A stretch of DNA of 64,000 nucleotides, from contig JBHLOY010000009.1 of the NCBI GenBank assembly GCA_048939995.1, forward strand, positions 21,456 through 85,455. The letters are read 5' to 3'. The DNA is from Promethearchaeota archaeon (GTDB lineage Archaea > Asgardarchaeota > Lokiarchaeia > Sigyniarchaeales > SOKP01). Position 1 is the first letter of the stretch, and each line of letters starts with the position of its first letter. Below are positions 5,624 to 55,347 of the stretch, piece by piece. The notes under the pieces are model-generated. The model saw only the letters and a program-made list of their open reading frames with translations. It did no database searches and was not told where the DNA came from. The translations under genes and the position numbers were made by a program.

Positions 5624-5745
5624 ATGTATTATTAGTTATTTCATTCTAATTATTATTTATCACTTTTCTATAATCTATAATCAGATCTTAGTTCTTTTAA
5701 AAATTTTAATAAAAAATAATGATTTTAAAAATTAGATATACTCTT

Positions 5746-6747
5746 TTATTCTGGTTGTTCGACTTCTTTTTCCTTCAAAAGCTTAGCCTTAATTTCTTTA
5801 ATTTCCTTTTTGATTTTTTTAATTGTAATTCCCTTAAGTTTGGCAAATCGATATATAAATACAAACCCCGAAATGAGAATCCCAGCTAAATAGAAGATTT
5901 GAATAGTCCAAAATAATGGTTGAATTGATACGTAAAATTCTAGATTTAAAATATAAGATAGAGTTGAGATTGTTGTAATCCAGATCAGAGATATGATTAA
6001 AACGACTCTTTCATAAAATTTTGGTTCGTCCCAATCAAGAACAAATATTTTTAACCAAAAAATTAGACAGATAAAAGTTATAGGGGTAAAAATCAGCGAA
6101 CCTATTGCAATTGGGATTAATAAATAAACAGCAAATCGATCTCTCCAAATATCTAATACCTCGCCTAACGTCATTTGATCTTGAATTTGAACTTTTGCGT
6201 ATTTTCCCCTCCAATTAAAATACTTCTTCTTAATTCCTCGTCCAACTTTTTTTACACCACCTTTAACGCGTTTAATTAATCCAGTCTCTACAACTTCTTG
6301 AAATTCTGCTCTTATTAAAGGAAGGAGATATAAAGTGATCATTAAAGAAATAATTCCATAAAGAAATATTAAAAGATCAATCCAATACTCCACACCAGTT
6401 GGTGGAGTACTAGGTGGTAGATTGGAAAAAATTGTATAAATAGCATAGCCAGCTAAAATTCCGGGAATGATTACTTGAAGGATTACAAGAATTTGGATAT
6501 GTTTTTTAGTAAATTTTTCAGTAAATCGATTCAATATCCATAAAATTCCATTTGCGATAGTAATGATCAAACCAAAGCCAGAAAGAAGTTTCATTGTCCA
6601 GAAGAAAATTAAAAATGTGAAATTAAGCGAGAAAAATCCAAAAAGTAATTCCAGTATCATAAAAACTGTCGTTGCAATTAAACCAATTATATAAAATATG
6701 TCAAATTTTTCAAGATTTAGTTTCATAATTATAATAAATCGCAACAA
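5746..6747 (-). CDS. Polytopic membrane protein, unknown function
   Basis: Eight or more hydrophobic helices, a basic cytoplasmic loop (KRVKGGVKKVGRGIKKKYFNWRGK) and a Lys/Glu-rich C-terminus. Confidence 0.6.
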   Translation of the reverse strand: MLRFIIIMKLNLEKFDIFYIIGLIATTVFMILELLFGFFSLNFTFLIFFWTMKLLSGFGLIITIANGILWILNRFTEKFTKKHIQILVILQVIIPGILAGYAIYTIFSNLPPSTPPTGVEYWIDLLIFLYGIISLMITLYLLPLIRAEFQEVVETGLIKRVKGGVKKVGRGIKKKYFNWRGKYAKVQIQDQMTLGEVLDIWRDRFAVYLLIPIAIGSLIFTPITFICLIFWLKIFVLDWDEPKFYERVVLIISLIWITTISTLSYILNLEFYVSIQPLFWTIQIFYLAGILISGFVFIYRFAKLKGITIKKIKKEIKEIKAKLLKEKEVEQPE

Positions 6748-9413: not shown

Positions 9414-9520
9414 TTTAAAATTTTTAAAAAAGATTAAATACCCTTATTTTTATTTAATTACTGTTAAGATAGTTTTCGACAAAATTATCTAGTATATTGG
9501 GTTTAAAAAACACAAGTAAG

Positions 9521-10054
9521 ATGTATAACGCCATTTTTAAAGTAGTCATTGTTGGGGATGCTGGATGTGGTAAGACCACACTAGCAAAGAGATACTTAAC
9601 TGGTAAATTTTTGCCGGATTCGCAAATGACAATCGGAGTTGATTTTGAAACTAAGGATATTTATTTAAATGGAATTCACGCAAAGTTGATGGTCTGGGAC
9701 TTTGCTGGTGAAGAAAGATTTCGATACATGCTACCTAAATATATTCATGGGGCAATGGGAGGAATTTTACTGTATGACACCACAAATAACACTTCTTTCT
9801 CTCATGTATATGATTGGTTATCTGTCATAAAAGAAACCAATGAGAACTTTCCAATTTTTTTGGTTGGAAGCAAAATTGATCTCAATTCGCTTCGAAAAAT
9901 AAGTTATAAAGAAGGGAAAAATTATTATAAATCTAGTGGTTTAGATGGATTTATTGAGTGTTCTAGCAAAACTGGAGAAAATGTAGAAAGGGTTTTTGAA
10001 AGTTTAACAAAGATGATGTTAAATATTGCCTGTTTGGAATTGAAAACAAAGTAA
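9521..10054 (+). CDS. Rab/Ras-like small GTPase (copy 1)
   Basis: G1 'GDAGCGKT', switch I 'MTIGVDF', G3 'WDFAGEERF', Rab-like 'YIHGAMGGILLYD', G4 'GSKIDL', G5 'ECSSKTG'. The ATG at 9521 (MYNAIFKVV) parallels copy 2. The ORF track begins at an upstream TTG (9497). Confidence 0.9.
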   Translation: MYNAIFKVVIVGDAGCGKTTLAKRYLTGKFLPDSQMTIGVDFETKDIYLNGIHAKLMVWDFAGEERFRYMLPKYIHGAMGGILLYDTTNNTSFSHVYDWLSVIKETNENFPIFLVGSKIDLNSLRKISYKEGKNYYKSSGLDGFIECSSKTGENVERVFESLTKMMLNIACLELKTK

Positions 10055-13893: not shown

Positions 13894-14274
13894 ATGTCTG
13901 AAGAAGAACTTAGAGACCAGATAAATAAAATAGCAAATAAGATTATGGTAGTAGAAGAAGGAGCAAAGAAAAAAGAAATATACGTTTTAAACAAGATTAA
14001 TGAAGAATTTGATGCCAAGATAGGTGAAGTTAAAGGAAATCTAAAAAGTAATCAAGATAAATTAAAACAGTTAAATGAAACTGTTGAAAAATTAATTTTA
14101 GAACAAAAGAGACTAAAAAAAGTAGTAAAAGATTTAGAAAAACACGATAAAGAATTAGGGAAAGAGAAAGAAAAAGCTTTAAATCAAAAATTAAAATCCA
14201 TTTCTAGCGAAAAGAACTCTCGGATGAAAGAAATTAATCGGGAAATCCAGATTCTGGAAAAAAAATTAAAGTAA
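13894..14274 (+). CDS. Lys/Glu-rich coiled-coil protein
   Basis: 126 aa, almost entirely heptad-like charged helix. No recognisable family. Confidence 0.5.
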   Translation: MSEEELRDQINKIANKIMVVEEGAKKKEIYVLNKINEEFDAKIGEVKGNLKSNQDKLKQLNETVEKLILEQKRLKKVVKDLEKHDKELGKEKEKALNQKLKSISSEKNSRMKEINREIQILEKKLK

Positions 14275-14928
14275 AGACTCTATCCTCTCCTCATTTAAAA
14301 AAAATAGAATGGAACGAGAATGCTTTTCTTTATTTATTACTTCAATATTTTTAAGTACTTTTAGATACTTACTCACGGTATTTATGTGCATATTTAAATC
14401 GGTAGAAATTCGAGTTTTAGAGACTCCTATATTATTTTCTTTCAAATAATTAATTATTTTCTGGCTATTTGCTTTATAAATATAATAGAGTTGATGAACC
14501 TTTTGCTTATTGATATCTGGCGTGTAATAGATCTCTCGGTTTTCAATTTTTTCTTTTTTAATATATCCAAATTTTTGGAGAATATTGAGGTGCCAGACAA
14601 CAACATGGCTACTAATTTTCAATTTTGATACAATTCTATTAAAATGAGTTCCTGGATAATTTAGTATGAATTTATGGATTTTTCTACGTTTATTATTATT
14701 TAAGATATCATCATGAGTTAATTTTGAGGCTTTTACAATGAGTTTTTTTTCTTGTAGTGATTTGAGGATTAATTGAATCCCATAAGTGGTCAATCTTTTT
14801 GACTTCTCTCTTAAACGTGATTGGATAATAGGGACAATTTTATCCATATCTAAGACTCTATTTTTATTTAAGTAATCCTGAATTATTCCTAACACGGCTT
14901 TTTCTAATCCAGCTAACTGTTCCGTCAT
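14266..14928 (-). CDS. Multi-winged-helix transcriptional regulator (ArsR/TrmB-like wHTH units)
   Basis: Three wHTH-like segments, for example 'RRKIHKFILNYPGTHFNRIVSKLKISSHVVVWHLNILQKFGYIKKE' and 'ISTDLNMHINTVSKYLKVLKNIEVI'. Confidence 0.7.
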   Translation of the reverse strand: MTEQLAGLEKAVLGIIQDYLNKNRVLDMDKIVPIIQSRLREKSKRLTTYGIQLILKSLQEKKLIVKASKLTHDDILNNNKRRKIHKFILNYPGTHFNRIVSKLKISSHVVVWHLNILQKFGYIKKEKIENREIYYTPDINKQKVHQLYYIYKANSQKIINYLKENNIGVSKTRISTDLNMHINTVSKYLKVLKNIEVINKEKHSRSILFFLNEERIESLL

Positions 14929-14958: not shown

Positions 14959-16200
14959 TTAATAACCGTTATTTGACTGGTTTTTGTCCTGCATTTCATT
15001 TATTATTTTATTGCGTTCCTTTGGGGTTAATGATGACATTTCTCTGATAAACTCTTCTTTTTCATTAGGGTCCCATTCAAATTTTTCAATGATGGTATAA
15101 AAGTCTTCTGTAAATGCGGTAATCTCGACTTTTTTTACTTCAGACTTTTTTTCAGTGCTTTTTCTTTTCGAATAAGCGTTCTTCTTGGAGTAAAAGAAAT
15201 AAATAGGAACCACGATACTAACACTAATCGCTCCAATAATTAAGAATACATTTAACAAATACCAAGGGAATTGATCAATATAAAAGATAAATATTCCTTC
15301 TAAACCAATTTTCGGATCATGTGAAATATCTGCTCCATGAGGGTATATTAAATATATTTTTTGATAATCATTATCATAATCATCCATTCCAAGATTAGTT
15401 GCATTTACAGCTTTTAAAAGTCCATCAACTAGTACATTTTGATTCCAAGAGAATATTCCGATGAATGAGTTATTAAGGGTTGAGACTGCTTTTTCATTAA
15501 AGGCATATCCAAATTCTTCATCTTCCGTTTCCTCAATTTCATCATAATTTGTTTCTGACTCTAGGCTAATATATAATGCTAGTTTTGATAAAGTATTATT
15601 AAAGGGAAAGTTGATATCAAAATCAATCTTTGGTTTAGTTGGAATCATCAATGCATCATCTCTTATAACAAATTCTTCTGGAATATAAAGATGCATGGTA
15701 AAAATACTGTCACTTGAGTTAATGATGAAATGATGCACAGAGGTTTGAGCTGTGATAACCTCTTGTTGATATTCTGCCGGATCGAAGCTGTCTAATTCGA
15801 TTTCTTGTATGTTATTATCAATGGTTGGATCAAATATACCATTATCGTTAATATCTACAAATTCAATAAGTTTTCTAATAATAACACTAAACTCTATTTC
15901 AAATTCAGCTTCGCTCTCACTAGTATATTCCGATTCGTAGCTCACCTCAAATCTTATTCCTTCACTATTATATCTCACTCTTAATTCTATTTCATCTCTT
16001 TTTGTTCCCTGTCTTAACAGAGATTGGACTTCAATTTCATTAGAAGAAAGTGTAATGTCAGTATCTCTCAGATTTAACTCTTCAAAATCGTCATCAACGT
16101 GATCGTCATCATCGTCAGAACCTAATACCGAATTTGAATTAAGCATTAAAGTAAACACGAATAATAATATAATTCCCGCTATTAGATTCTTTTTTTTCAT
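14959..16200 (-). CDS. Acidic secreted, C-terminally TM-anchored protein with cytoplasmic tail (tandem paralog A)
   Basis: Signal peptide, an Asp run (SDDDDDHVDDD), a conserved core shared with 16277..17299, a 'DINDNGIFD' Ca-loop-like motif, a TM helix near residue 320 and a charged tail of about 70 aa. Confidence 0.7.
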   Translation of the reverse strand: MKKKNLIAGIILLFVFTLMLNSNSVLGSDDDDDHVDDDFEELNLRDTDITLSSNEIEVQSLLRQGTKRDEIELRVRYNSEGIRFEVSYESEYTSESEAEFEIEFSVIIRKLIEFVDINDNGIFDPTIDNNIQEIELDSFDPAEYQQEVITAQTSVHHFIINSSDSIFTMHLYIPEEFVIRDDALMIPTKPKIDFDINFPFNNTLSKLALYISLESETNYDEIEETEDEEFGYAFNEKAVSTLNNSFIGIFSWNQNVLVDGLLKAVNATNLGMDDYDNDYQKIYLIYPHGADISHDPKIGLEGIFIFYIDQFPWYLLNVFLIIGAISVSIVVPIYFFYSKKNAYSKRKSTEKKSEVKKVEITAFTEDFYTIIEKFEWDPNEKEEFIREMSSLTPKERNKIINEMQDKNQSNNGY

Positions 16201-16276: not shown

Positions 16277-17299
16277 TTATTTTATTCTTCGCTTTCTATA
16301 GATAAGGATACTACTAGCACTAATAACTGCAACAACACCTATTATAACCCCGATCAACACAAATGGTAACCAATCAGTTCCAGCCTGTATAGAATAAATA
16401 CTCATTGTTGGGTCATGGTAAATATAATCTCCCCTAGGATAATTAAGGTAAAATTTCTGCTCACTTTCATCATCATCATCAGTTTCTATTTCACTTGCTA
16501 AAACTTGTTTCGAAATTCCATCAATGGTTGCATTTTCCTTCCAAGTAAAAGCCCCTATAAAATTATTTAGTTCAGTTTTTACACCTGATTCATTGGATGT
16601 ATATCCATCTTTCTCATCCTCAGTTTCTTCCTGGTATTCATATTCACTACTTGAACTAAGTTTAACATATAGAGCTAATTGTGAGTTTCCATTAAGATAG
16701 TTGAAATTATTTATCTCAATGTCAATTTTCAAAGAGGTTGGTGCGATAAAGGTTCCGTTTACTATTGCAAATTCTTCAACAACGTATAAGTGAGCTGCAA
16801 AAGTACCATCAGTACTATTTATAAATATATAGTGTAAGGTTGTATCGGTAGATATATTAGATGAAGTGTAAACTGCTGGTTTGAAACTATCTAAAGGAAT
16901 TTCTTGAATTGTGGTATCAATTAAAGGCTCATAAATACCATTACTATTTAGATCAACAAATTCGATTAATTCTCGAAAGTTTGCTTCAAATTCGATTTCA
17001 AATTCTGTTTCATTCTCAGCTATGTATTCAGACTCATAGCTAACTTTAATATCAACGCCATTATTATCGTATTTAACATTTAATTCAATTTGATCAATTG
17101 GACCCTCGCGTAATAACGATTCTACCTTAATTTCATCTGATAAAAGCTCGACTTCAATGTGACGTTTAGTTGATTCTTCATAGTCATCATCAATTCCATC
17201 ACTGTCTTCATCTGTGGAGGCTGTGACATTTAATGAAGAACTAAAAGCTACTAATGAAAGTATCATTATCAATAAGAACCCATAATTCCTTATTTTCAT
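16277..17299 (-). CDS. Acidic secreted, C-terminally TM-anchored protein (tandem paralog B)
   Basis: Signal peptide, 'DEDSDGIDDD', a core colinear with 14959..16200 (LLREGPIDQIELNVKYDNNGVDIKVSYESEY...EFVDLNSNGIYE), and a C-terminal TM plus a 'YRKRRIK' stop-transfer. Confidence 0.7.
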   Translation of the reverse strand: MKIRNYGFLLIMILSLVAFSSSLNVTASTDEDSDGIDDDYEESTKRHIEVELLSDEIKVESLLREGPIDQIELNVKYDNNGVDIKVSYESEYIAENETEFEIEFEANFRELIEFVDLNSNGIYEPLIDTTIQEIPLDSFKPAVYTSSNISTDTTLHYIFINSTDGTFAAHLYVVEEFAIVNGTFIAPTSLKIDIEINNFNYLNGNSQLALYVKLSSSSEYEYQEETEDEKDGYTSNESGVKTELNNFIGAFTWKENATIDGISKQVLASEIETDDDDESEQKFYLNYPRGDYIYHDPTMSIYSIQAGTDWLPFVLIGVIIGVVAVISASSILIYRKRRIK

Positions 17300-19454: not shown

Positions 19455-19979
19455 ATGTATGACGCAATTTTCAAAGTTGTTATTTTTGGTGATGCTGGGA
19501 GTGGTAAGACGGCTCTAACTAAGAGATTTATGACAAACTTATTTATATCAGATACACAAATGACGATTGGAGTAGATTTCATAGTTAAAACCATCGAAGT
19601 TGATGGGAAAGAGATAAAACTCCAGATTTGGGATTTTGGTGGTGAAGAAAGATTCAGATTTCTCCTTCCAAGATATATTCGTGGTGCGAGCGGAGGACTT
19701 TTGATGTATGATATTACTAGCTATCCTTCCACCTTTCATATTGAAGATTGGTTATCTGTTATACGTAGAACAGAGGAAACATTTCCGATTATTCTTGTAG
19801 GAGGTAAAGCAGATTTAGAGGAATTCCGTCAAATTTCTTTTGATGAAGGATTAAAAATTACTATTTCACAAGGTTTAAATGACTTTATAGAATGTTCTAG
19901 TAAAACAGGACTAAATGTTGAAAAGATTTTTGAAAGCCTTGCTAGCATAATGCTTAAAATATCAAATGATAAGTATTGA
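19455..19979 (+). CDS. Rab/Ras-like small GTPase (copy 2)
   Basis: G1 'GDAGSGKT', switch I 'MTIGVDF', G3 'WDFGGEERF', 'YIRGASGGLLMYD', G4 'GGKADL', G5 'ECSSKTG'. No C-terminal Cys lipidation motif. Confidence 0.9.
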   Translation: MYDAIFKVVIFGDAGSGKTALTKRFMTNLFISDTQMTIGVDFIVKTIEVDGKEIKLQIWDFGGEERFRFLLPRYIRGASGGLLMYDITSYPSTFHIEDWLSVIRRTEETFPIILVGGKADLEEFRQISFDEGLKITISQGLNDFIECSSKTGLNVEKIFESLASIMLKISNDKY

Positions 19980-19984
19980 ATCTA

Positions 19985-22258
19985 CTAATCTTTATTATTT
20001 TTAATAGGAACAAAAATTCCTTTTTTAATCAAATTTAATAGGGCTTCATAATCCTTTGGTCCACAAACATTATCTGGAAGTAGATATATAGCATAAAAAT
20101 AAGTTAGATTATAATCCTTCATAAAATTAGTTGCTTTTTTGACCATCTCTTTTTCATTTTGGTTTAGTTTTGCCTCTTTAGGAATTGAGACTCTTAATGG
20201 ATAACGAAATGAAACATTTAAATCACTATCAATCAGTTTCTGTATACTACGGAATGGTCTTAGGTCACCTTCAAAACTTTCGATTAATTTGCTGTAATAT
20301 TTGTAAATATGATAAGCCAATGATTCAATAGAATAAAGAAAATTTTTAGAAGGATTACTCTTCATAATAACGATTACCCGCAAATTGATAAATTCTGTCA
20401 TTAATATAATAGAATTTTTATATTCTACTTTAACAGTTCGCGATTCCTTTGCACCATCTATTACTTCAACCCCAAAATTATGAATAGCTTGAAGAAATCC
20501 AGATATTAAAGTGGGATCTAATTGTTTTTCCTCAAAGGATTGGGAATATAAATCGATTCCGGTTTTTGTATGCAATACAATTATATATTTTAAATTCAAA
20601 ACATCATTACATTGTTCTAAAAATGTTTGCAGCTTATCTCTTTTTCGAGATTCCCTCTTCTTAACCACTACATAACTCGAGTAACCTATAGTCATACCAC
20701 CAATAACAATACTTCCAATTATTATAAATAACGTGAAATCTAGCTCATTCGGGATTAGATTCGCTTCTATAAAAAATGTCTGAGATTGAACACCCGCATC
20801 AGTTTCATTATTCCAAAAAATATAAGCAATATAATCCCCCTCAATTGCATTTGTTGGAATTATATATGAAAATTCTAATGGTGATGAAGGTTCTTCTAGT
20901 ATTTGTTTAGTAGTTTGGTATTTTACTATATCAGCTGGATTGAAAAGTAATAGCGTGTAATTACCGGCTAAAGGAGATAAAATTGAAAAGCTTAATTCCT
21001 GCCCTGCTTGATATTCAGTTATAGGAGCATTTATAATAAATTCTATATTTGGAGAATTCGCTCTTATTTCCCATTCAGCACTATTTTCTATAGTGGAATT
21101 TGGGATTATTAAATAATTAGTAACGGGGTCAATTATAATGTCTGAAGAAATATTTATACTATTCTTTATTATATTCAGGTTAGTCCAACTTCTTGGTAAG
21201 AGGAATTTTATCGTGTGATTATTAGAAACTCTTGTGATTATAGGATTAACAACCCAGACAATAGAATCGTTGAACTGGATATTAACAGAACTTTCAACAT
21301 TAAATAAATTATTGATATGAAGGGTATAATCAAGTTTAAAATTCAAGCTCTCAGTTTTATTATTTTCAATCTTAAAGCTAACAATTTCATTATTAGGATG
21401 ATAATTGATATCACTCCTCTTTAGATATCCATTTCCCTCACCGTATCCATTTGATACTTTATAAAAATTACCATTGATTTGAGTAGTCATATTGATTTCT
21501 TCTGGAAAAACAGATGAATTAATTTTTTGAATTAATCTATATAGAAAGGTTACTCCTTGAGAGCCCATCGACCAAGAACCACCATTGAAAGAAGAGCTAT
21601 ACAAATCGGGATTTTTAGGGTTTATATCATTTTTATACCAGAAGTAATCTGATTTAGGACTAGTTCCTATGGATGATCCATCTATGATAATATAATAATC
21701 CCCAATAGGAAGAAAAATAGGGCTAGAAAAAGTTTGGCGATGCCAAGAGGGTAAAAGAGAAAATGACATATTTAAATTTCTTAATGGGCTATAAGTTTGA
21801 GTATTTGGGGCTTTAGTTAAATCATCATAACCTTTTATCTGAAAATAAATAGGTTTACTTTCAGAGGATTCATTATTACCATATATTTCGATACCATAGA
21901 TTATAGTGGGGTCTATGATTTTTAGTTGTACTCCTAAACCATCCTTAAATTTATTAATAATAGCATAATTAGCGGGAATATCTTCAATTGCTTTTATCTC
22001 AGACCCAAACTCTACCTTGCTAAAATTTAGGTTTATATCTTCAATAGCCCAAGAGGAGCTAGGTAAATTGAAGTCAAATGAACTTAAATTGTTATAAGTT
22101 CCTTTGTTAACTGAATATTCGAAAAAGTCAAATTTGGTATTTATATTTAAAGTACTGCTTGTTTTGACTAAAGAAATCCCATTTTCACTAATAAAACTAA
22201 AACCTAAAAACAATGCAAATACCAAAATTGAAAAGAAAAATAATTTTTTTGATTTCAT
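19985..22258 (-). CDS. Receptor-like single-pass membrane protein, paralog 1 (signal peptide, sequon-rich ectodomain, TM, cytoplasmic longin/Roadblock-like module)
   Basis: Signal peptide MKSKKLFFFSILVFALFLGF, an ectodomain of about 500 aa with many NxS/T sequons, the TM 'FTLFIIIGSIVIGGMTIGYSSYVVV' and a 225-aa tail with a beta-beta-alpha-beta-beta-beta-alpha pattern. Colinear with three other ORFs in the window. Confidence 0.8.
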   Translation of the reverse strand: MKSKKLFFFSILVFALFLGFSFISENGISLVKTSSTLNINTKFDFFEYSVNKGTYNNLSSFDFNLPSSSWAIEDINLNFSKVEFGSEIKAIEDIPANYAIINKFKDGLGVQLKIIDPTIIYGIEIYGNNESSESKPIYFQIKGYDDLTKAPNTQTYSPLRNLNMSFSLLPSWHRQTFSSPIFLPIGDYYIIIDGSSIGTSPKSDYFWYKNDINPKNPDLYSSSFNGGSWSMGSQGVTFLYRLIQKINSSVFPEEINMTTQINGNFYKVSNGYGEGNGYLKRSDINYHPNNEIVSFKIENNKTESLNFKLDYTLHINNLFNVESSVNIQFNDSIVWVVNPIITRVSNNHTIKFLLPRSWTNLNIIKNSINISSDIIIDPVTNYLIIPNSTIENSAEWEIRANSPNIEFIINAPITEYQAGQELSFSILSPLAGNYTLLLFNPADIVKYQTTKQILEEPSSPLEFSYIIPTNAIEGDYIAYIFWNNETDAGVQSQTFFIEANLIPNELDFTLFIIIGSIVIGGMTIGYSSYVVVKKRESRKRDKLQTFLEQCNDVLNLKYIIVLHTKTGIDLYSQSFEEKQLDPTLISGFLQAIHNFGVEVIDGAKESRTVKVEYKNSIILMTEFINLRVIVIMKSNPSKNFLYSIESLAYHIYKYYSKLIESFEGDLRPFRSIQKLIDSDLNVSFRYPLRVSIPKEAKLNQNEKEMVKKATNFMKDYNLTYFYAIYLLPDNVCGPKDYEALLNLIKKGIFVPIKNNKD

Positions 22259-46792: not shown

Positions 46793-49123
46793 TTATATTT
46801 TAATTGAAGGATCAAACACCTTTTTCTCAATTAGGTTCAAAATTACTTCTGCTTCTTTAGCTTGAAATCCTCCTTTTTGTGAGATTAGGTTAGATACAAA
46901 AAAATAATTCACTCCTTTTTGTTTCATAATAATCTTTGCTAATTCAATAAACTCTTTCTCATTAGAGGTTAATTTTATGGTTGATGCATCATTAATCTGA
47001 AGGGGGTAAATCAAGCTGACAGGTAGATGGTGTTCAATAAGATCTGTTATACCAGTGAATTTACTTACTTCTCCATCAAATCGTTCTAAATCTTTCCCAT
47101 AATTTTGGTCAATATCATAAGATAACTGCTTTATTGACTCAAGGAAGTCTTCAGAAGGGCTCTCCTTCATTATAAGAGTTATTCTAAAATTCTTGAATTC
47201 AGACATCAATATTTTAGAATCCTGATATTCGAGCTTAACGGTTTGGGATTGTTGATTTGAACCTGTGAGATCCAGGCCAAAACTTCTAATTGCTTCTAAG
47301 AATCCAGAAATTAAAGAGGCATCTATACTCTTACTTGCAAAAATTTTATCATAAATATTAATTCCAGAATTTTTTTCGATAATTAATAAATAATCCAAAT
47401 TCAAAATATCCATATATTTGTTAAAAATACTTTGTCGATATGTTGCTCTTTCTTTTTTAACTTTCTTGACTACTTTAAATGATGTGAATGCACTTACCGC
47501 GACTATAGAACCAACAATTGCAGTTATTATAAGGATGAGAGGCAAAATATCTATATTGACCAAAAATGTTTCCGATTTAATTCCAGCGGCGGTTATTGTA
47601 TTCCAAAAAACATAAGCAACGTATGCTCCTTCATTTGGATTAGCTGATAAAGTGTAATTATATACAGTTTCAGTTAGTGTTACAGGGACTCGCTTTCTAT
47701 CTATCTCATATCCTAATGAATCTCTTAAAATGAATGTATAGTTGCCCTCTAAAAGAGGAGCAATTACAGAATACTTTAATTCTTGTGATTGCTCGAAATT
47801 TTTTTTAGGTGTATTTAGAGTTAATGCAACGTTTGGAGAATTAGCTCTTATTTCCCAATCAGCACCATCAATAATGGTATTATTGGGAATAATTATTACT
47901 TTTCCAATAGGATCAATATTAACTTGGGAAGAGATGTTTATCCCATCTCGAAATACTGCTGGGTTAAACCAATTGGAGGGATAATCAAACTTCACTGAAT
48001 GATTTATATATAATCTTGAAATAATAGGAGTAAGTGTCCAGTTATTATCTTGACTTTCTTGCATCGTTACATATCCACTGGAGAAAAATAAATTTTTAAG
48101 ATTTAGGTGGTAAGTTAAATTAAACAATAATTCTACTGAGTTGTTATTCCAGATTTCAATATTTAGGGCATCATCGCCAGGACTATAATCTACTCCTTTG
48201 ATTGTGAGATTACCCGTTCCGATTTCGGGTCCATTTGTTATTTTATAAATACCACCATTTAATTCTGCAGTCATATTTATACTCTCGGGGAAATAGGTTT
48301 TGCTTGTTCTTTGAAGAACTTTATATAAGAATGGTGAGCCTTGTTTTCCTCTTGTCCAGTGCCAAACTGTAAGCTCACGTACATAAAAAGAGATATGAAG
48401 GTTTGGATGGTTTGGATTTGCATCATTGTAAAACCAATATATTGTTGAACCTTCAATCGCTATAAACTGAGTGACATTTAAGAGTAAATAATATTGTCCT
48501 ATTGAAAGATCAACAGGATTTTGAAACTTTTGGTAATGCCACCCCAAACTATTCGTCATATTTAATTTTGTTGAGCCATAAATAATATTATTTGGTGAAT
48601 CTGGTAATAATCCCCCGGAATTATATCCATTTATTTGTACATTCGTTATATCTACGATTGCTGGAGAGGTAGCAACCCCATAAATATAAACTCCAAAAAT
48701 TTTAGTTGGCTCAGTAATATTTATTTGAACGCCCATTCCACGCACATCTTTCCCGAGAGTATGAAATCCAACAGTAGTATTATCTTCTATAGTAATGATC
48801 TCACGTTCAAGTTTTATATCAGTAAAATTAAGATTAATTTGAGTAACATTCCAAGTTGATGAGGGTAATGGGATTTTTATGGAACTATTACTCTCTTGTG
48901 TATCAATATTATCTGCTAACTCAATCATATGAAGATGTGTTGGAGTTGTTAGTGTAATTCCATTATATTGAGCTAAGGATATTTTAGAATTGAATAAAAA
49001 GCTAAAAAGAAACATTGAAATCATTCCATAAATAAATAAAACTCTAAATTTTTTACTTTTCACCATAATTTCCCCATACCTCATTATAGAAATAATTTTA
49101 ACTGCATTTCTAATCTTAATCAA
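46793..49123 (-). CDS. Receptor-like single-pass membrane protein, paralog 2
   Basis: Colinear with 19985..22258 over its full length, including the tail motifs 'DILNLDYLLI', 'LISGFLEAIRSFG' and 'IYPLQI'. The probable start is the ATG at 49066 (MVKSKKFRVLFIYGM... signal peptide ending ...SLAQ). Confidence 0.8.
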   Translation of the reverse strand: MIKIRNAVKIISIMRYGEIMVKSKKFRVLFIYGMISMFLFSFLFNSKISLAQYNGITLTTPTHLHMIELADNIDTQESNSSIKIPLPSSTWNVTQINLNFTDIKLEREIITIEDNTTVGFHTLGKDVRGMGVQINITEPTKIFGVYIYGVATSPAIVDITNVQINGYNSGGLLPDSPNNIIYGSTKLNMTNSLGWHYQKFQNPVDLSIGQYYLLLNVTQFIAIEGSTIYWFYNDANPNHPNLHISFYVRELTVWHWTRGKQGSPFLYKVLQRTSKTYFPESINMTAELNGGIYKITNGPEIGTGNLTIKGVDYSPGDDALNIEIWNNNSVELLFNLTYHLNLKNLFFSSGYVTMQESQDNNWTLTPIISRLYINHSVKFDYPSNWFNPAVFRDGINISSQVNIDPIGKVIIIPNNTIIDGADWEIRANSPNVALTLNTPKKNFEQSQELKYSVIAPLLEGNYTFILRDSLGYEIDRKRVPVTLTETVYNYTLSANPNEGAYVAYVFWNTITAAGIKSETFLVNIDILPLILIITAIVGSIVAVSAFTSFKVVKKVKKERATYRQSIFNKYMDILNLDYLLIIEKNSGINIYDKIFASKSIDASLISGFLEAIRSFGLDLTGSNQQSQTVKLEYQDSKILMSEFKNFRITLIMKESPSEDFLESIKQLSYDIDQNYGKDLERFDGEVSKFTGITDLIEHHLPVSLIYPLQINDASTIKLTSNEKEFIELAKIIMKQKGVNYFFVSNLISQKGGFQAKEAEVILNLIEKKVFDPSIKI

Positions 49124-49253: not shown

Positions 49254-50555
49254 GTGAATAAAGTGGTAAGGATAACGACTAAAGGTATGAGCGATTGGTT
49301 TGGACTTTTTGGTTCATCTACTTTTGGAGATGGTCTATGCCATTTTATAGGATGTATGGCTAATATGTGCGTTTTTGATACTAGCGAAGGGCTAGTTATA
49401 TTTGACTTGCCAATGAAACAATTTAGTTATAAAATATTTAAAGCAATCAGAGAAAGAACCAAAAAACCAGTAAAATATTTCATATATTCTCATGGTCATT
49501 TTGATCATGCATTTGCATTCGCACCTTTCATCGAAGAAGTAGGAAAAAAGGGTTGGATAATGCCTGAAGTTATAGCACATGAAAATTGTATTAAAAGATT
49601 CGAAAAATATAGGATGCTTAGTGAATATCACGTGTGGATTAATAAAATGCAATTTGCTTCACTAGGGATATTGAAGCATAAAAATTTAGTTTCTGCTTTA
49701 GAAACTCTTGATCCAACAATCATTTTAAAAGGAAATGATGCAAAATACAATTTTGAATTAGGAAGTATTCAATTTGATCTAAATCATGATAAAGGTGAAA
49801 CAGATGACTCAATCTGGTTATGGGTACCTGAGAAAGAAACGATTTGTGCGGGGGATTTATTCGTATCATCATTTCCTAATATAGGTAATCCTTTTAAGGT
49901 TCAGCGTTATCCTAAAGATTGGGCAATTGCTTTGGATAAAATGCTTGAAAAAGAGGCAAAGTATCTAGTTCCAGGACATGGTCCTCTTATAAAAGGGAAA
50001 GAAAAGGTTAAGGAGGCTCTATTAATAACTTCTGAGGCTTTGCATTTTGTGCATGATGAGGTTGTTAAGCGGCTTAATGCGGGGAAATGGTTTGAGCAAA
50101 TCTACTATGAGATGCTAGAAATATTCCCTAAAAAATTCAAAAACCATCCATTATTGCGGGAGATGTATGGATGTTATCGATTTGCAATTCACGCATCCTA
50201 CAGACTCTATCATGGCTGGTATAACAGTGGTAATCCTACAGAATTATTTCCTTCAAAGGCAACAGATATTGCACAAGAATTTTTAAAGCTCAATAGTGAA
50301 GAATCATACTTGAATCATGCAAAGAAGTTATTTGAGGAAGGTAAACTACAATTAGCATTGCATATTCTCGATGTCGTAATAAATGGAATCAATGAAAAGA
50401 AGGGCAGTATCTATTTAAAGGCTTTACAATTAAAATATGACATTCTAAAAATTAAAGTGGAGGAAGAGTCGTCTTTTATTGCTGCTAATATTCTTGATAA
50501 TGCGAGATATAATATAAAAGATAAGATTAAAACCATACAAAAACAATTAAAATAG
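49254..50555 (+). CDS. MBL-fold alkyl/aryl-sulfatase (SdsA1/BDS1-like) lacking the SCP2 domain
   Basis: 'YSHGHFDHAF', 'GETDDSIWLWVPEKETICAGDLF' and 'PGHGP', then the alkylsulfatase dimerisation-domain pattern 'YHGWYNSGNPTELFPSKATDIAQEFLKL'. No signal peptide. The start is uncertain (GTG at 49254, GTG at 49263 or ATG at 49287). Confidence 0.7.
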   Translation: MNKVVRITTKGMSDWFGLFGSSTFGDGLCHFIGCMANMCVFDTSEGLVIFDLPMKQFSYKIFKAIRERTKKPVKYFIYSHGHFDHAFAFAPFIEEVGKKGWIMPEVIAHENCIKRFEKYRMLSEYHVWINKMQFASLGILKHKNLVSALETLDPTIILKGNDAKYNFELGSIQFDLNHDKGETDDSIWLWVPEKETICAGDLFVSSFPNIGNPFKVQRYPKDWAIALDKMLEKEAKYLVPGHGPLIKGKEKVKEALLITSEALHFVHDEVVKRLNAGKWFEQIYYEMLEIFPKKFKNHPLLREMYGCYRFAIHASYRLYHGWYNSGNPTELFPSKATDIAQEFLKLNSEESYLNHAKKLFEEGKLQLALHILDVVINGINEKKGSIYLKALQLKYDILKIKVEEESSFIAANILDNARYNIKDKIKTIQKQLK

Positions 50556-50563
50556 AATTTTTC

Positions 50564-52813
50564 TTATCGTTGAGGCACAAAAACGCCTTTTTTAATAAGA
50601 TTAAGTACGGTTTGGGCATCCTTTGGTGAACATTCATTTTCAGGTAGCAGATAAAGCGCATAAATATGGTCTAATCCATAATCTTCCATTAATTTCTTCG
50701 CTTTTTCAACCATCTCCCTTTCAGCAGAATTTAATCTTACATTATCAGGCATTTCTATTTTTAACGGATAGATGAACGAAACATTTAGATGTTCTTCAAC
50801 CAATTCTTTGATTCCTTTAAAGTCTTTTACATTTCCATGAAATTCATCAATCATTTTTCCATAATTTTTATACACATCATATGCTAAGGATTCAACAGCA
50901 TAATGGAAATCTACTGAAGGTTCAGCTTTCATGTTTAGGATGATTCTTACATTTACAAATTCTGTCATTAATAAGATAGAATTTTTATATTGTATTTTTA
51001 CTGTTTTGTCTTTATCCTTGGCTACTTCTGAACCAAACGCACGAACGGCTTGTAGAAAACCAGATATTAATGTGGAATCCCCTTTTTGTTCTCCAAATGA
51101 TTGAGAATAAATGTCTATTCCAGATCTAATATCAGTCACTATTAAATAGTTTAGGTTGAGGATATCTACACATTTTTCTAGCAATCTTTGCATCTCATAT
51201 CTACGATTTTTTGATACTCTCTTATAAGCTATAAAGCTTAAGATTGCAGCAATAGGTGCAATTGTAACAACCGTAATAATTATAAAGAAAATACCCATAT
51301 CTGGGGGAGGTGATTTAGGGATAGAAATAATAAACTCTTGAACTATAACACCCGCATCGGTCTGATTGTTCCAGAATACGTATGCAATATAGGTTCCGTC
51401 TGGTGAACTCAATGGAAGTGTATAGGAAAATAGAATAGTATCAGGAGGTATAGTTTTGCTGATATTAAATTCTTCAATATCTGCAGAGTTTATTAAAATA
51501 TACGTATAGGTTCCTTCTAATGTAGGTGTTGCTAGCGAAAATTGAACTTCTTGTCCTAAATAATAATCTGTTTTTGGAGCATTCAATCCAATTGAAAAAC
51601 TAGGAGATTCCGCCATTATCTCCCAATTAGCGTTTTCGATAAGAGTATTATTTGGGATAAATATATAATTTTCATTAATTGTTATATTGAATTCCATATT
51701 TTGCCCATCTCTAAAAACGCTTATATTTTCCCATGTACGGGGAATTTTGAATTTAATGCTATAATTATCTGTATAACGAATAAATGTTCGGGAAAGAATC
51801 CATTCATTACTTTGAGATTCCTGTATACTTACTTCACCCAGAGTGATTAAACTTTCCTCAAAATATAAATGATAGGAAATATTGAAATCTAACGCTTTTG
51901 AAGCGTTATTATTAACAGCAAAAGAAAGAGTAGTAGTTAAAGGACGAAAATCTTGAAATGTTTGAGATAAAACCCCACTTCCCTCTTCTCCACCATTTAA
52001 CACTTGATATTCTTGATTATTTATATTAACGGACATATTGATACTTTCTGGAAAAAGAGGAGCTTTACTTTTCCGAATTATTTTGTAAAGAAATGTTTTA
52101 TTATCTACCCCGTCAGCCCAAATAACGCTATCCTCTAGAGTAGTCGCAGAGTACAATGATGGATCGCTAGGATTTGAATTATAATGCCAGTAATAATATT
52201 GACCATTAAGACTAAAATTAGTTCCATTTAGAACTAAAAAGTAATTTCCACTTGGTAAATTAAGAGGAGATGAAAAATTTTGTATATACCATCCCAAAGT
52301 TGTTGAGATATTGAGAGTCTGAGAAGTAAAAATGGTGCTATTTGGTGTGTTATTTGTATCATTATATCCTCGAATCTGCACTTGAATATTTTGAGTGGTA
52401 CCCGCGCTCTTGTTTCCATAGATAAACACTCCATAAATGGTTTCGGGATGATCTAATCTAATTTGAGTTGCTAAGCCTAAATTATTAAAAATTCCATTTG
52501 TAAAATAAACCCGTTCAAATCCCGTTGGTTGATCTTCTACGATTATTGTCTCCTTTTCAAAAGTAAGGTTCATAAAATCTAATTCAATGTTCGTAATATT
52601 CCATTCAGTAGTTGGTAATTCAATATTAATAGAATTGACAGTTGAATTTGATCCTTGAAGATCAGAATATTGAGACATTTTAAAACTAGTATTTAGATTT
52701 AAAATTAGATCATGCCCTTGAGCCTTAGTACTTCTTAAATTTATATTAAAACTAATGAAGAGAGCAGTAGATACTAAAATGAAAATTAATAGACTTTTTT
52801 TATTCAAACTCAA
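50564..52813 (-). CDS. Receptor-like single-pass membrane protein, paralog 3
   Basis: Colinear with the other three paralogs. Tail motifs 'DILNLNYLIV', 'LISGFLQAVRAFG', 'IYPLKI' and 'LNLIKKGVFVP'. TTG start. Confidence 0.8.
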   Translation of the reverse strand: MSLNKKSLLIFILVSTALFISFNINLRSTKAQGHDLILNLNTSFKMSQYSDLQGSNSTVNSINIELPTTEWNITNIELDFMNLTFEKETIIVEDQPTGFERVYFTNGIFNNLGLATQIRLDHPETIYGVFIYGNKSAGTTQNIQVQIRGYNDTNNTPNSTIFTSQTLNISTTLGWYIQNFSSPLNLPSGNYFLVLNGTNFSLNGQYYYWHYNSNPSDPSLYSATTLEDSVIWADGVDNKTFLYKIIRKSKAPLFPESINMSVNINNQEYQVLNGGEEGSGVLSQTFQDFRPLTTTLSFAVNNNASKALDFNISYHLYFEESLITLGEVSIQESQSNEWILSRTFIRYTDNYSIKFKIPRTWENISVFRDGQNMEFNITINENYIFIPNNTLIENANWEIMAESPSFSIGLNAPKTDYYLGQEVQFSLATPTLEGTYTYILINSADIEEFNISKTIPPDTILFSYTLPLSSPDGTYIAYVFWNNQTDAGVIVQEFIISIPKSPPPDMGIFFIIITVVTIAPIAAILSFIAYKRVSKNRRYEMQRLLEKCVDILNLNYLIVTDIRSGIDIYSQSFGEQKGDSTLISGFLQAVRAFGSEVAKDKDKTVKIQYKNSILLMTEFVNVRIILNMKAEPSVDFHYAVESLAYDVYKNYGKMIDEFHGNVKDFKGIKELVEEHLNVSFIYPLKIEMPDNVRLNSAEREMVEKAKKLMEDYGLDHIYALYLLPENECSPKDAQTVLNLIKKGVFVPQR

Positions 52814-52962
52814 CCCATTTTATTATAATTTATTATTTTAATCCTCTTCTACTATAAAAAAGTTTTTGTCTAATTTTTTATAACTGTTTGAAATTAATAA
52901 AAAATTAATTTCTTTTATAATTATATTTTTTTAAAAAAATTAAAGAGAAAATAAAAATAGAG

Positions 52963-54273
52963 TTAGGGTTTAAGGATAGCCCCTTTGCTTAGAGCAGTTA
53001 TGGTTTTATCTTTTGGTTCGGGGACGAAATTTAATACAATAAAAACACCGATAAATGCAACTAGGCTAAGAAGCATACCAGTACCGAGTGCCTGAAGAGA
53101 AACAAATGGGTTGCTAAAAGGATCTGCACTAAAAGGGTTAAGTGCATCCGAAATAACTCCCACTATAAATCCTCCCAAGCCAGCTCCACGTGCTATAGAA
53201 AATATTATTGAGTTTGCAGAAGCTCTAACTTCAGTATCATATAATTCAGAAGACCAAACACCAAAGATACCATGAAGACCAAAACCGAGTGTAATAAAAA
53301 CAGAGGATAAGAGGATCAGATTATCACTAAACAACATTTTAGTAAATATAGCAAATAATACCCCTCCAATTATTCCAATGATGTTATCGATTAGAAAAGC
53401 TTTTTTTCTACCCAGATAATCACTTAAAAACCCAAAGAAAAATAAACCGAATGCAGCTATTACCATAAGAACTAACATAAAAAGTCTTGAGATACTTTCA
53501 TAATTAGTTACTCCCGCGTTGGCAAATAAGTACTGAAAGAAAGTTGGTGCAAAGTCTACTAAGGAATGATAGGCAATTTCAGCGAACCAGAACAAAAAAA
53601 TAAGTAATACAGTTAACTTCCGCCATTTCCTACTGAAAATTTCTTTTAAACGTATTTTTTGTTTAATCTGTTTCTCCTTGCGGAGTTGTTCATATTCAGT
53701 CCAAATAGCAGATTCTGGTAAGGTGAACCAAAAGAGTATAATAAAAGGTATAGGAAAGAGGGCAGTAAGGAAACAGAACTGCCACGGACGGATCAGCAAT
53801 GTTGTTATTATTGCACCGATATATCCTAATACAAATGTAGAGTGAACTAAACCACCTGCAGCACCTCTTCTTTTAGGAGAAAAATGTTCGGATATTAACG
53901 AGAAAGAAATTCCCCAACTGACTCCCAAACCAGAAATCATTCTCATAATTGCGAATAGTACAAACATATTAGAAGGTACTAGCGAAGTCAAAGAGGAAAA
54001 AATCGCATCCCATGCTATAGAGATGATTAATGCATTTTTCCTCCCAAAACGATCTCCTAATTCACCGAAAAGAATGGCACCGGGAACAGTAAATACGAAT
54101 TGAAATGAAAAAACAAGACCTATCTGCCAATCACCGACTCCAAAGAATGTTTTTAGTTCGGGAGCTAGTAAAGTTACCATAACTAATGAATATCCATCAT
54201 GCATCCATGCAATAAATGCAGCCAACAGAATTATTAAAGTTGTAAATTTTGAATATTTTTTAAGTTCAGTCAA
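52963..54273 (-). CDS. MFS transporter
   Basis: MFS motif A 'GELGDRFGRKNALIISI', 12 TM helices and a central cytoplasmic loop. Confidence 0.85.
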   Translation of the reverse strand: MTELKKYSKFTTLIILLAAFIAWMHDGYSLVMVTLLAPELKTFFGVGDWQIGLVFSFQFVFTVPGAILFGELGDRFGRKNALIISIAWDAIFSSLTSLVPSNMFVLFAIMRMISGLGVSWGISFSLISEHFSPKRRGAAGGLVHSTFVLGYIGAIITTLLIRPWQFCFLTALFPIPFIILFWFTLPESAIWTEYEQLRKEKQIKQKIRLKEIFSRKWRKLTVLLIFLFWFAEIAYHSLVDFAPTFFQYLFANAGVTNYESISRLFMLVLMVIAAFGLFFFGFLSDYLGRKKAFLIDNIIGIIGGVLFAIFTKMLFSDNLILLSSVFITLGFGLHGIFGVWSSELYDTEVRASANSIIFSIARGAGLGGFIVGVISDALNPFSADPFSNPFVSLQALGTGMLLSLVAFIGVFIVLNFVPEPKDKTITALSKGAILKP

Positions 54274-54359
54274 ATTTTTTCACTTTTTAATAGAAATTAG
54301 TGAATAGGTAAATATTGTCTTAAGAAATATTTAAGATTATAAGAAAGTGCAAGAAGGTT

Positions 54360-55283: not shown

Positions 55284-55347
55284 TTATTCCAGATTAATTA
55301 ATATAAATTATTATACTATTACTGAATTGAAAATTTCTTTTCTTTAT

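Follow-up and report, generated by a model that had tools for sequence, protein, structure and literature searches.

Four paralogous genes in a 64,000-nt stretch of DNA from a Promethearchaeota archaeon (assembly GCA_048939995.1, contig JBHLOY010000009.1, positions 21,456 to 85,455 of the forward strand; the whole stretch is termed the window below) encode putative single-pass receptors, W1-W4, the tails of which are predicted to consist of a longin-type core and a small C-terminal unit. By profile comparison the core is related to the longins of Asgard proteins in which a longin is fused to a Rag/Arf-like GTPase, and one clade of the family has, downstream of the receptor gene, genes for such a GTPase and/or a soluble longin. 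We infer that the receptors serve as membrane-anchored longin platforms for small GTPases, which is the best reading of the data and, in our judgement, has somewhat better than even chances of being correct.

Four putative receptors and their family

The four genes are:
19985-22258, minus strand: W1, a 757-residue open reading frame (ORF) with, by ORF list and four-way alignment, an N-terminal hydrophobic signal or anchor segment (residues 6-24), an ectodomain, a transmembrane helix, the tail and a stop codon
46793-49123, minus strand: W2, with the whole architecture of W1 by four-way alignment; tail at 46796-47470
50564-52813, minus strand: W3, with the same architecture by the same alignment; tail at 50567-51235
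56934-59174, minus strand: W4, with the same architecture by the same alignment; tail at 56937-57605
Within W1 the parts that precede the tail are:
20738-22186, minus strand: ectodomain (residues 25-507), zero cysteines, 13 N-x-S/T sequons with 8.9 expected
20663-20737, minus strand: single transmembrane helix (residues 508-532, FTLFIIIGSIVIGGMTIGYSSYVVV), identified by hydrophobicity and directly followed by KKRESRKRDK

The tail of W1 comprises its last 225 residues (KKRESRKRDK...PIKNNKD), i.e. the translation of 19988-20662 on the minus strand. W2, W3 and W4 align with W1 from end to end at 37-41% identity, and the gaps in the tail amount to just 1-2 residues, in agreement with the initial annotation, according to which the tails of the four paralogs align without large gaps. 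A phmmer search with the W1 tail against all six-frame ORFs of the window yielded exactly four matches (E 1.8e-77, 1.2e-54 and 1.6e-47 for the other three), the family profile A3 matches the four tails at E 1e-84 to 1e-92, and a search of the window with the family profile revealed no fifth copy of the receptor tail.

Each of the four proteins contains an N-terminal hydrophobic segment, an ectodomain of ~480 residues, one hydrophobic helix of 24-25 residues and a tail that starts with a K/R-rich stretch. Following the positive-inside rule, a basic stretch after a transmembrane helix marks the cytoplasmic side, and the K/R-rich stretch directly after the transmembrane segment of each paralog thus fits a cytoplasmic tail. 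Moreover, the ectodomains contain 13-22 N-x-S/T sequons versus 7.5-9.7 in shuffled sequence, and the tails 0-2. Together, the positive-inside rule and the sequon bias fit type I membrane proteins with a glycosylated ectodomain outside and the tail inside the cell. In Pfam and NCBIfam the W1 ectodomain gave only sub-threshold matches of the beta-sandwich type (PAW, fn3_5, Invasin_D3, choice_anch_R), and a sequence search of the PDB with it gave no match. The mechanically assigned TTG start of W2 adds ~19 residues (49066-49123) without counterpart in the other paralogs, and the true start is probably the ATG near 49066 ('MVKSKKF'), which agrees better with the alignment.

The tail is part of a large family. 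An exhaustive profile search, counted as representatives of clusters at 50% identity, yielded 1265 members at E <= 1e-3 and 650 at E <= 1e-10, and a word-indexed search returned 16 relatives, all named ones originating from Asgard metagenome-assembled genomes (MAGs) except one labelled only 'bacterium'. When one genome per species was scanned with alignment A2 (closer relatives) as query, 79 loci were found, all in Asgard MAGs (labelled Promethearchaeota or Hod-, Hermod-, Odin- or Thorarchaeota). The search with a hidden Markov model-type profile that the initial annotation had proposed thus delineates a large family with exclusively Asgard genome loci and no match in Pfam. The tail of W3 is identical to a database fragment (P0009) from a Promethearchaeota MAG, and the tail of W4 falls into a separate clade of the tail tree (see below).

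Among the four paralogs, the mean pairwise identity reaches 42% in the tail (46% in the longin core, 38% in the C-terminal unit) and amounts to 37% in the ectodomain and 26% in the transmembrane segment. The earlier view of the tail as the most conserved part therefore holds by a small margin among the paralogs, and it holds clearly for the wider family: the tail is usually C-terminal in proteins of ~300 to ~1650 residues, a length range that implies its connection to many different ectodomains, and because the ectodomains range from ~300 to ~1650 residues it is clearly the tail that constitutes the shared module. The motifs listed for the four tails proved right in substance, but they are not strictly common, as paralogs 2, 3 and 4 show single-residue exceptions. 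In W2 Tyr replaces the first Cys, Lys the Gln of 'Y.Q.F', Asp the Glu of 'FG.E' and Thr the Asn/Asp of '(N/D)..E(K/R)'; W4 has Ser for the Gly of 'G(I/L)(D/N)' and 'VIM' for '.LM', and W3 has 'AV' for 'SI'.

Several relatives carry additional parts. In P0008, P0079, P0093, P0104, P0110, P0130 and P0133 the tail or only its longin part is followed by the conserved, proline-rich (F/Y)PYPY(I/V)(F/Y)xPPxPPDD and a C-terminal zinc ribbon, and P0130 contains a response-regulator receiver domain. P0151, P0156, P0159, P0161 and P0162 (600-1650 residues) have a helical extension of ~200-225 residues after the tail, with repeated 'A..Y..A...A' helices that are MIT/TPR-like in appearance and have no match in Pfam. 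P0011 (204 residues; also P0006) was considered as a stand-alone soluble tail and rejected, since the upstream frame in its locus L001 encodes the end of an ectodomain and a transmembrane helix. In this locus (5680-6615) the frame runs upstream to a stop at ~5677, directly after a gene for a UPF0182-like protein of 1103 residues, and this arrangement is kept in L001, L002 and L003. P0011 is a truncated gene call, behind which there may be a frameshift, a pseudogene or an unusual start.

The longin-type core and the C-terminal unit of the tail

The tail of W1 is divided as follows:
20594-20662, minus strand: juxtamembrane helix (tail residues 1-23; helix 2-23 in the AlphaFold2 model), ending in the conserved D20/N23 of the 'C.D..NL' motif
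20213-20593, minus strand: longin-type core (tail residues 24-150), from AlphaFold2, Foldseek, hhalign and conservation
19988-20212, minus strand: C-terminal unit (tail residues 151-225), winged-helix-like when modelled by AlphaFold2 in the full tail and alone

The model that AlphaFold2 built of the tail from the 58-sequence alignment A3 has a predicted local distance difference test score (pLDDT) of 87.8 and a predicted template modelling score of 0.83. The elements of its core are arranged in the order beta-beta-alpha-beta-beta-beta-alpha-alpha, i.e. strands b1 (24-31) and b2 (37-42), helix a1 (50-63), strands b3 (76-81), b4 (84-91) and b5 (94-100, with R95), helix a2 (106-128, capped by P104-S105), F130-x-G132 and helix a3 (135-148). 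The model thereby shows the features of a longin at the level of the fold, namely a five-stranded antiparallel sheet, the order b1-b2-a1-b3-b4-b5-a2-a3 and no obligatory N-terminal helix. A Foldseek search of the PDB gave 46 matches at E <= 1e-3, every one a longin or Roadblock protein: AP2 sigma at the top (E 3e-5), zeta-COP, AP1/AP3 sigma, Sec22b, VAMP7, LAMTOR2/3 and the C-terminal domains of Rag, and further FUZ/INTU, Mon1-Ccz1, a Streptomyces and a Thorarchaeota Roadblock protein; the Roadblock matches include LAMTOR2/3, 3kye and 7f8m. The alignments span ~105-130 columns (up to ~230 for larger tri-longin and coat-complex chains), and the target-normalised template modelling (TM) score is 0.5-0.68 for single-domain targets. 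As all matches are longin or Roadblock proteins and the element order agrees, the alpha/beta sandwich is present in the model, and the longin/Roadblock-like core that the initial annotation had read from the sequence pattern is borne out by the structure comparison suggested there.

Since AP sigma subunits, zeta-COP, Sec22b and VAMP7 are the best structural matches, the tail might also be a sorting or trafficking module that, like the longins of SNAREs or of sigma and zeta subunits, controls the location or turnover of the receptor, e.g. in protrusions or vesicles, instead of signalling. However, Foldseek ranks folds, not functions, neither a SNARE motif nor an adaptor large-subunit partner was seen in the tail or nearby, and the operon partners described below are GTPases and longins, so that we regard a sorting role as improbable.

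At the sequence level, the four window proteins gave no match at threshold in Pfam or NCBIfam, nor did 58 diverse tails in Pfam. In particular, the gathering thresholds of the Pfam longin models (Longin PF13774, Clat_adaptor_s PF01217, Fuz_longin_1 PF19036, Sybindin PF04099) were not reached by the window proteins or the 58 tails, the sole match of longin type being one Intu_longin_1 at E 0.048, and both sets lack a match to Roadblock/LC7 (PF03259). PDB sequence searches with two tail profiles gave matches at chance level only (Ssr1698, E 0.01 over 50 residues; RNase R, E 0.15). Thus, no known family is matched with confidence in Pfam, NCBIfam or PDB sequence searches.

The link to known longins comes from soluble proteins. 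Profile A5, which was made from the ten most distant tails, matched the soluble Asgard proteins P0236 (E 1e-8), P0231, P0235 and P0237. P0236 (Odinarchaeia, annotated as Arf-like) starts with a longin that contains the signature helix (DENLISGFLSALQNF) and W-x-G-x4-F and continues with an Arf/Rag-like GTPase domain (Pfam Arf 6e-22, Gtr1_RagA 3e-7); its N-terminal domain matches Fuz_longin_1 with 23.5 bits, i.e. below the cut-off of 26.1, and Clat_adaptor_s at E 0.002. This layout recurs in P0231 and P0237 with weak Arf matches (E 2.5e-4 and 3.9e-3), and by sequence also in P0235, with just a weak P-loop match in Pfam. In hhalign, residues 30-153 of the tail profile align with residues 7-132 of P0236 at 97.8% probability (E 1e-12). 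Judged by these profile comparisons, the longin core of the tail is homologous to the N-terminal longin of Asgard longin-Rag/Arf-like GTPase fusions, and these longins are its nearest true relatives. A word-indexed protein search with the 125-residue longin domain of P0236 returned no match. Tran et al. 2024 (PMC10933270) described Asgard fusions of longin or Roadblock domains with GTPases, among them the longin-GTPase class in MK-D1, and regarded them as evidence that the fused domains interact functionally; longin-GTPase fusions of this class were also described by Liu et al. 2020 (10.1101/2020.10.19.343400).

This relationship also bears on the subtype of the core. The helix before strand 1 of the receptors is a juxtamembrane linker, basic across the family (mean net charge +4.2), that is not present in the soluble homologues, which start directly at strand 1 and end in two helices. 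In the contrast between longin and Roadblock arrangements drawn by Tran et al. 2024 (PMC10933270), a start at strand 1 and two helices at the end denote a longin. Roadblock domains, by comparison, have the topology a1-b1-b2-a2-b3-b4-b5(-a3), the N-terminal helix being packed on the sheet. The profile link to proteins with sub-threshold matches to Pfam longin models likewise favours a longin over a Roadblock subtype. The first of the listed motifs, 'C(N/V/M)D(V/I)LNLxY(I/L)', which had been taken for a strand, does contain the start of strand 1, but also the end of the juxtamembrane helix in the AlphaFold2 model, and is hence not purely a strand.

The most conserved positions of the tail are D20, L52-S54-G55-F56-L57-x-A59-I60-xx-F63-G64 in a1, R95, P104-S105, F130-x-G132, F137, P155, E170 and L211, with helix a1 (residues 50-63, LISGFLQAIHNFG) as the most conserved element. 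The window tails display all characteristics of what may be called the Asgard LISGFL-type longin module, i.e. a profile match over b1-a3, the D..LISGFL.A...F helix, P-S before a2 and F-x-G before a3. A LISGFL-type longin is also found in P0217, P0218, P0222 and P0226, soluble proteins of ~400 residues, in which it lies C-terminal to a ~270-residue domain without assignment.

The C-terminal unit consists of a strand (155-158, YPL), a helix (168-183), a short helix (191-194), a helix (202-213) and a strand (217-219). Modelled alone, the C-terminal 77 residues reach a pLDDT of 87.8, and their best Foldseek matches are the MetAP2/Ebp1 insert, the winged helix of RPC39 (2yu3), the DNA-binding domain of LexA and the N-terminal domain of MccB, with TM scores of 0.51-0.55 and root-mean-square deviations of 3.3-3.6 A over 66-69 of the 77 residues, every E value being >= 0.12 and thus non-significant. 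The insert of type 2 methionine aminopeptidase (MetAP2) is classified as a winged helix in SCOP. A canonical winged HTH has the order a1-b1-a2-a3-b2-(wing)-b3. The proposed winged-helix-like nature of the unit therefore agrees with the type of its best structural matches, but none of these is significant and none of the 58 tails matches a helix-turn-helix (HTH) family in Pfam; the predicted structure is compatible with a winged helix.

A winged helix raises the possibility of a membrane-tethered transcription regulator that binds DNA at the membrane or after proteolytic release. The resemblance to LexA-type and other winged helices would suit such a role, as would the soluble protein P0229, in which the same longin type (hhalign 96.7%) is joined to a bona fide winged HTH (HTH_45, E 1e-7). 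The hhalign comparison of the C-terminal unit with the winged-HTH region of P0229, however, gave 0.4% probability, i.e. no link, the structural matches are not significant, an HTH-family sequence match is missing and the conserved positions are residues of the hydrophobic core. Moreover, the putative recognition helix (202-213) is net neutral and the net charge of the unit varies from -8 to +12 over the family, which argues against a conserved DNA-binding role. We give this explanation next to no weight.

Genomic neighbourhood of the receptors

In clade C of the family, 21 loci contain, closely downstream of the receptor gene and in the same orientation, a gene for a Rag/Arf-like GTPase, for a soluble longin or for both. 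The full order of receptor, GTPase (Gtr1_RagA/Arf, E 4e-19 to 2e-22) and longin-like protein of ~147 residues occurs in L078, L079, L086, L089, L090, L091, L092, L100 and L115, with a second GTPase-longin pair in L079 and L115 and a second GTPase, then the contig end, in L086 and L089. In L082 and L088 the receptor is followed by the GTPase and the contig ends before any longin, and in L071, L093, L094, L096-L099, L103, L112 and L126 the soluble longin follows the receptor directly. The soluble longin of these operons matches the tail profile at 73% probability (E 3e-5) and Pfam Longin at E 0.0016, below the cut-off. As to the stand-alone soluble versions of the tail next to GTPases that had been envisaged, soluble copies of the whole tail could not be established, but small soluble longins do occur in the receptor-GTPase operons.

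A second recurrent arrangement is formed by tandem pairs of receptor genes on the same strand, the upstream and downstream members of which fall into two separate clades, A and B, of a neighbour-joining tree of 120 tails. The 22 pairs have a median spacing of 162 bp (from the upstream stop to the start of the downstream stop-to-stop ORF). Such pairs were recovered again in metagenome contigs with the downstream partner as the query-like gene, which removes the selection bias of the first scan. In the window, W3 (A-type, upstream) and W2 (B-type) constitute a tandem pair with one gene on the opposite strand (49254-50555) between them; the nearest related MAG (L036) shows the same layout, and in L027 and L032 the orthologues are directly adjacent.

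W1 has a different neighbour:
19455-19979, plus strand: Rab/Ras-like small GTPase of 174 residues (Pfam Ras 1.7e-45), convergent with W1, 5 bp between the stop codons

Orthologues of this GTPase (71-84% identity) lie next to W1 orthologues in L007 (convergent) and L010 (divergent) and one gene away in L011, and in another six members of the W1 clade a GTPase of a second orthogroup is encoded 0.1-3.5 kb upstream. A Rab-like or second-orthogroup GTPase is thus located within 4 kb in 10 of the 21 loci of this clade, or in 12 of the 21 if the divergent GTPase-like ORFs in L015 and L041 (~3.9 kb downstream) are counted. By orthologue comparison, the adjacency of the 19455-19979 GTPase itself is conserved only in the nearest W1 orthologues, and the protein is a candidate partner of W1. 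A soluble longin near any of W1-W4 was not found in the window. In L013 (3627-4043), 2.3 kb upstream of a W1 orthologue, an ORF of 138 residues with a longin signature (LSNFYLVLKNI..., WNGDVSFF) encodes a possible soluble longin partner for the W1 clade.

A GTPase neighbourhood common to the whole family was tested for and rejected: in the ~58 genome loci that do not belong to the W1 clade, a Rab-based screen found an adjacent GTPase only in L082. A GTPase lies 2.4-7.4 kb away in L035, where it is a large protein of weak GTPase-like similarity, and in L083, and the adjacent Rag/Arf-like GTPases of L078 and L079 were missed by this first screen. Apart from the W1 clade and clade C, few receptor genes have a GTPase neighbour. 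The link to a Ras-like GTPase, which had been proposed from the window, is hence supported for the family by the longin-GTPase fusions and the clade C operons, but the adjacency at 19455-19979 is kept only among close relatives, and the functional link is weaker for the four genes of the window than for clade C.

The initial annotation had also compared the system with the Streptomyces conservon. The conservon is a four-gene operon for a membrane sensor resembling histidine kinases (CvnA), a Roadblock/LC7 protein (CvnB), a DUF742 protein (CvnC) and an MglA-like GTPase (CvnD). Taken literally, the comparison would mean that CvnA, CvnB and CvnC are fused in one chain that acts together with a GTPase of the CvnD kind and shares its origin with the actinobacterial system. 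The fold order (an alpha/beta sandwich, then a winged-helix-like unit) is indeed the same, and a Ras-superfamily GTPase adjoins W1. However, no Pfam family is significant in any of the 58 tails, hence neither Roadblock/LC7 nor DUF742, and the Pfam/NCBIfam scans of the window proteins revealed no kinase-like sensor domain (kinase/HATPase). Moreover, the sequence relatives of the tail are the longins of the Asgard fusions, and the neighbouring GTPases are Rab/Ras- or Rag/Arf-like and not organized in a four-gene operon. As no membership of the tail in Roadblock/LC7, DUF742, NPR2/3 or a Pfam longin family can be detected, the comparison is to be understood as an analogy, and common descent with the conservon is very improbable.

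Beyond these genes, a gene cluster for sulfated substrates (49254-56856) lies between the receptor paralogs, and a second small GTPase is encoded elsewhere in the window:
49254-50555, plus strand: alkyl-sulfatase-like metallo-beta-lactamase
52963-54273, minus strand: sugar-type transporter of the major facilitator superfamily
54360-55283, minus strand: TauE/SafE sulfite exporter
55348-56856, minus strand: arylsulfatase-type sulfatase
9497-10054, plus strand: second Rab/Ras-like small GTPase (Pfam Ras 1.4e-46), paralogue of 19455-19979

The second GTPase has an orthologue at the corresponding distance in L007 and adjoins no receptor gene. An NADPH-dependent flavin mononucleotide (FMN) reductase is encoded directly upstream of the receptor both in the window (59322-59897, minus strand, by W4) and in L079 (5541-6116), the two receptors belonging to different clades; downstream of the receptor lies the GTPase-longin operon in L079 versus the sulfatase cluster in the window. 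Two paralogs of another family (14959-16200 and 16277-17299, both minus strand) contain a signal peptide, an acidic D/E-rich stretch, a shared region of ~250 residues, one C-terminal transmembrane helix and a short tail, and neither matches Pfam. Their genes are located just upstream of one for a double winged-helix protein (HTH_HVO_0163_N, HTH_24; 14266-14928, minus strand).

A possible platform for small GTPases

Based on these findings we propose that the longin domains of the receptors pair in the manner known from the longin and Roadblock domains of Ragulator, Mon1-Ccz1, NPRL2-NPRL3 and MglB, the partner being either the tail of a paralogous receptor, as in a pair of the W3/W2 type, or a soluble longin. 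A longin pair directly beneath the membrane would then serve as a docking platform for a small GTPase and control either its nucleotide state or its location, so that an event at the ectodomain, e.g. ligand binding, a surface contact or clustering, may be converted into local GTPase activity. The conserved helix LISGFLxAIxxFG might provide the surface for pairing or for contacting the GTPase, and the winged-helix-like unit may be a protein-binding adaptor rather than a DNA binder. The more far-reaching proposal, that a large, Asgard-specific family of single-pass receptors signals to Rag/Arf- and Rab-like GTPases via a longin heterodimer on the cytoplasmic side, in which the second partner is either a paralogous receptor or an operon longin, is tentative, and we consider its chances to be well below even.

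Several points weigh against a GTPase platform. Pairing and GTPase binding are deduced by analogy from other members of the fold, and tandem paralogs can be explained by plain gene-family expansion. Longin domains can also act independently of GTPases, as in SNAREs and in the sigma and zeta adaptor subunits. Conservation allows no assignment of a catalytic arginine or another catalytic residue of the longin-GAP (GTPase-activating protein) type, R95 being conserved but located in strand 5. Among W1-W4 only W1 has a GTPase neighbour in the window, which, owing to the convergent orientation, is not co-transcribed with W1, and W2, W3 and W4 have neither an adjacent GTPase nor a soluble longin there. 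Over the 79 genome loci the rate of GTPases within 4 kb is presumably near the expected background, by a rough estimate that assumes small-GTPase numbers for Asgard genomes, and since the enrichment is clade-specific, the association may in part reflect shared ancestry.

The tail could accordingly be a generic dimerisation or scaffold element, the longin of which pairs receptors or ties them, via the C-terminal unit, to cytoskeletal, ESCRT or other adaptors, with the GTPase neighbours being a separate matter. Most loci with A-B tandem pairs and three of the four window paralogs lack a GTPase neighbour, and some eukaryotic longin domains are known to work without GTPases (PMC10933270). Yet longins of this subtype also occur in one chain with Rag/Arf-like GTPases, and the receptor is followed by a same-strand GTPase and/or soluble longin in 21 loci. 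We consider a generic scaffold unlikely, although it deserves attention, and prefer the GTPase platform.

Such a platform would have counterparts in several known systems. The Asgard longin-GTPase fusions share with the receptors the homologous longin core, the D..LISGFL.A...F helix and F/W-x-G-x4-F before helix 3, whereas the receptor chain lacks a GTPase domain, its longin being anchored in the membrane behind a large ectodomain and extended by the ~75-residue unit. Eukaryotic longins (AP sigma, zeta-COP, Sec22b/VAMP7, Mon1-Ccz1, FUZ/INTU), which provide the best PDB matches, have the same fold and order of strands and helices, and their heteromeric pairing is suggested for the receptors by the conserved tandem pairs; the receptor tails, in contrast, remain below the thresholds of the Pfam longin models. 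Longin SNAREs are tail-anchored with an N-terminal longin, whereas the longin of the receptors follows a type I transmembrane helix, and we know of no eukaryotic single-pass receptor with a longin tail.

In the proposed model the receptors resemble Ragulator-Rag, where lipidated LAMTOR1 anchors LAMTOR2/3 Roadblock dimers that dock Rag GTPase dimers, so that in both cases Rag-like GTPases would have a platform of sandwich fold anchored in the membrane; LAMTOR2/3 and the C-terminal domains of Rag are among the structural matches, and the operon GTPases match Gtr1_RagA. The anchor of the receptors is, however, a transmembrane protein and not a lipid, their fold is of the longin and not of the Roadblock subtype, and the two systems show no relationship in sequence. 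NPRL2/NPRL3 of GATOR1, an obligate heterodimer and GAP for RagA with an N-terminal longin that has a catalytic arginine, is similar in that a small C-terminal domain follows the longin, the paralogs are paired and a Rag-like GTPase is involved. Here, the receiver domain of P0130 may be compared with the NPRL2-like longins reported in Asgard archaea, some of which are fused to two-component domains (Liu et al. 2020, 10.1101/2020.10.19.343400). NPRL proteins, by contrast, are soluble whereas the receptors are membrane-bound, the 58 tails contain no match to Pfam NPR2/NPR3 and NPRL2 is not within the top 50 structural matches. With the Streptomyces conservon (CvnA-D) and MglA/MglB the receptors share the logic of a sensor, a sandwich-fold platform, an HTH-like component and a Ras-superfamily GTPase; the conservon differs in that its components are separate proteins of a four-gene operon and its GTPases belong to other families, and the receptor tail shows no family membership with it.

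Expansions and unusual fusions of longin and Roadblock domains in Asgard archaea are well documented (PMC10933270; 10.1101/2020.10.19.343400). Our literature searches found nothing specific on Asgard receptors with a Roadblock or longin tail, and neither a longin-tailed type I receptor nor the receptor pairs or the receptor-GTPase-longin operon are described there, while an uncommented listing among the asCOGs of Liu et al. is possible.

The findings bear on the question of which regulator acts with which GTPase, and what feeds signals into these systems, in Asgard archaea. Their genomes encode small GTPases, as well as longin and Roadblock proteins, by the dozen. The genome layout in MK-D1 rarely helps to pair regulators with GTPases (Tran et al. 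2024, PMC10933270). The family described here offers a membrane-spanning input module on a longin, conserved receptor pairs and, in clade C, operons that single out a particular Rag/Arf-like GTPase, together with a soluble longin, as partners. Owing to these receptor pairs and operon-named partners, binding, localisation and GAP or guanine nucleotide exchange factor experiments with defined components are possible. If the model holds, the receptor-GTPase-longin operons would be the first genome-encoded and testable triads of GTPase, regulator and receptor in Asgard archaea, and such defined sets would be of interest to Asgard cell biology and to the study of eukaryogenesis. The receptors would follow, in a prokaryote, the same logic as Ragulator, GATOR and the tri-longin exchange factors, in which a receptor or anchor acts via a longin or Roadblock platform on a GTPase, and the coupling of surface receptors to small-GTPase platforms would be older than eukaryotes.

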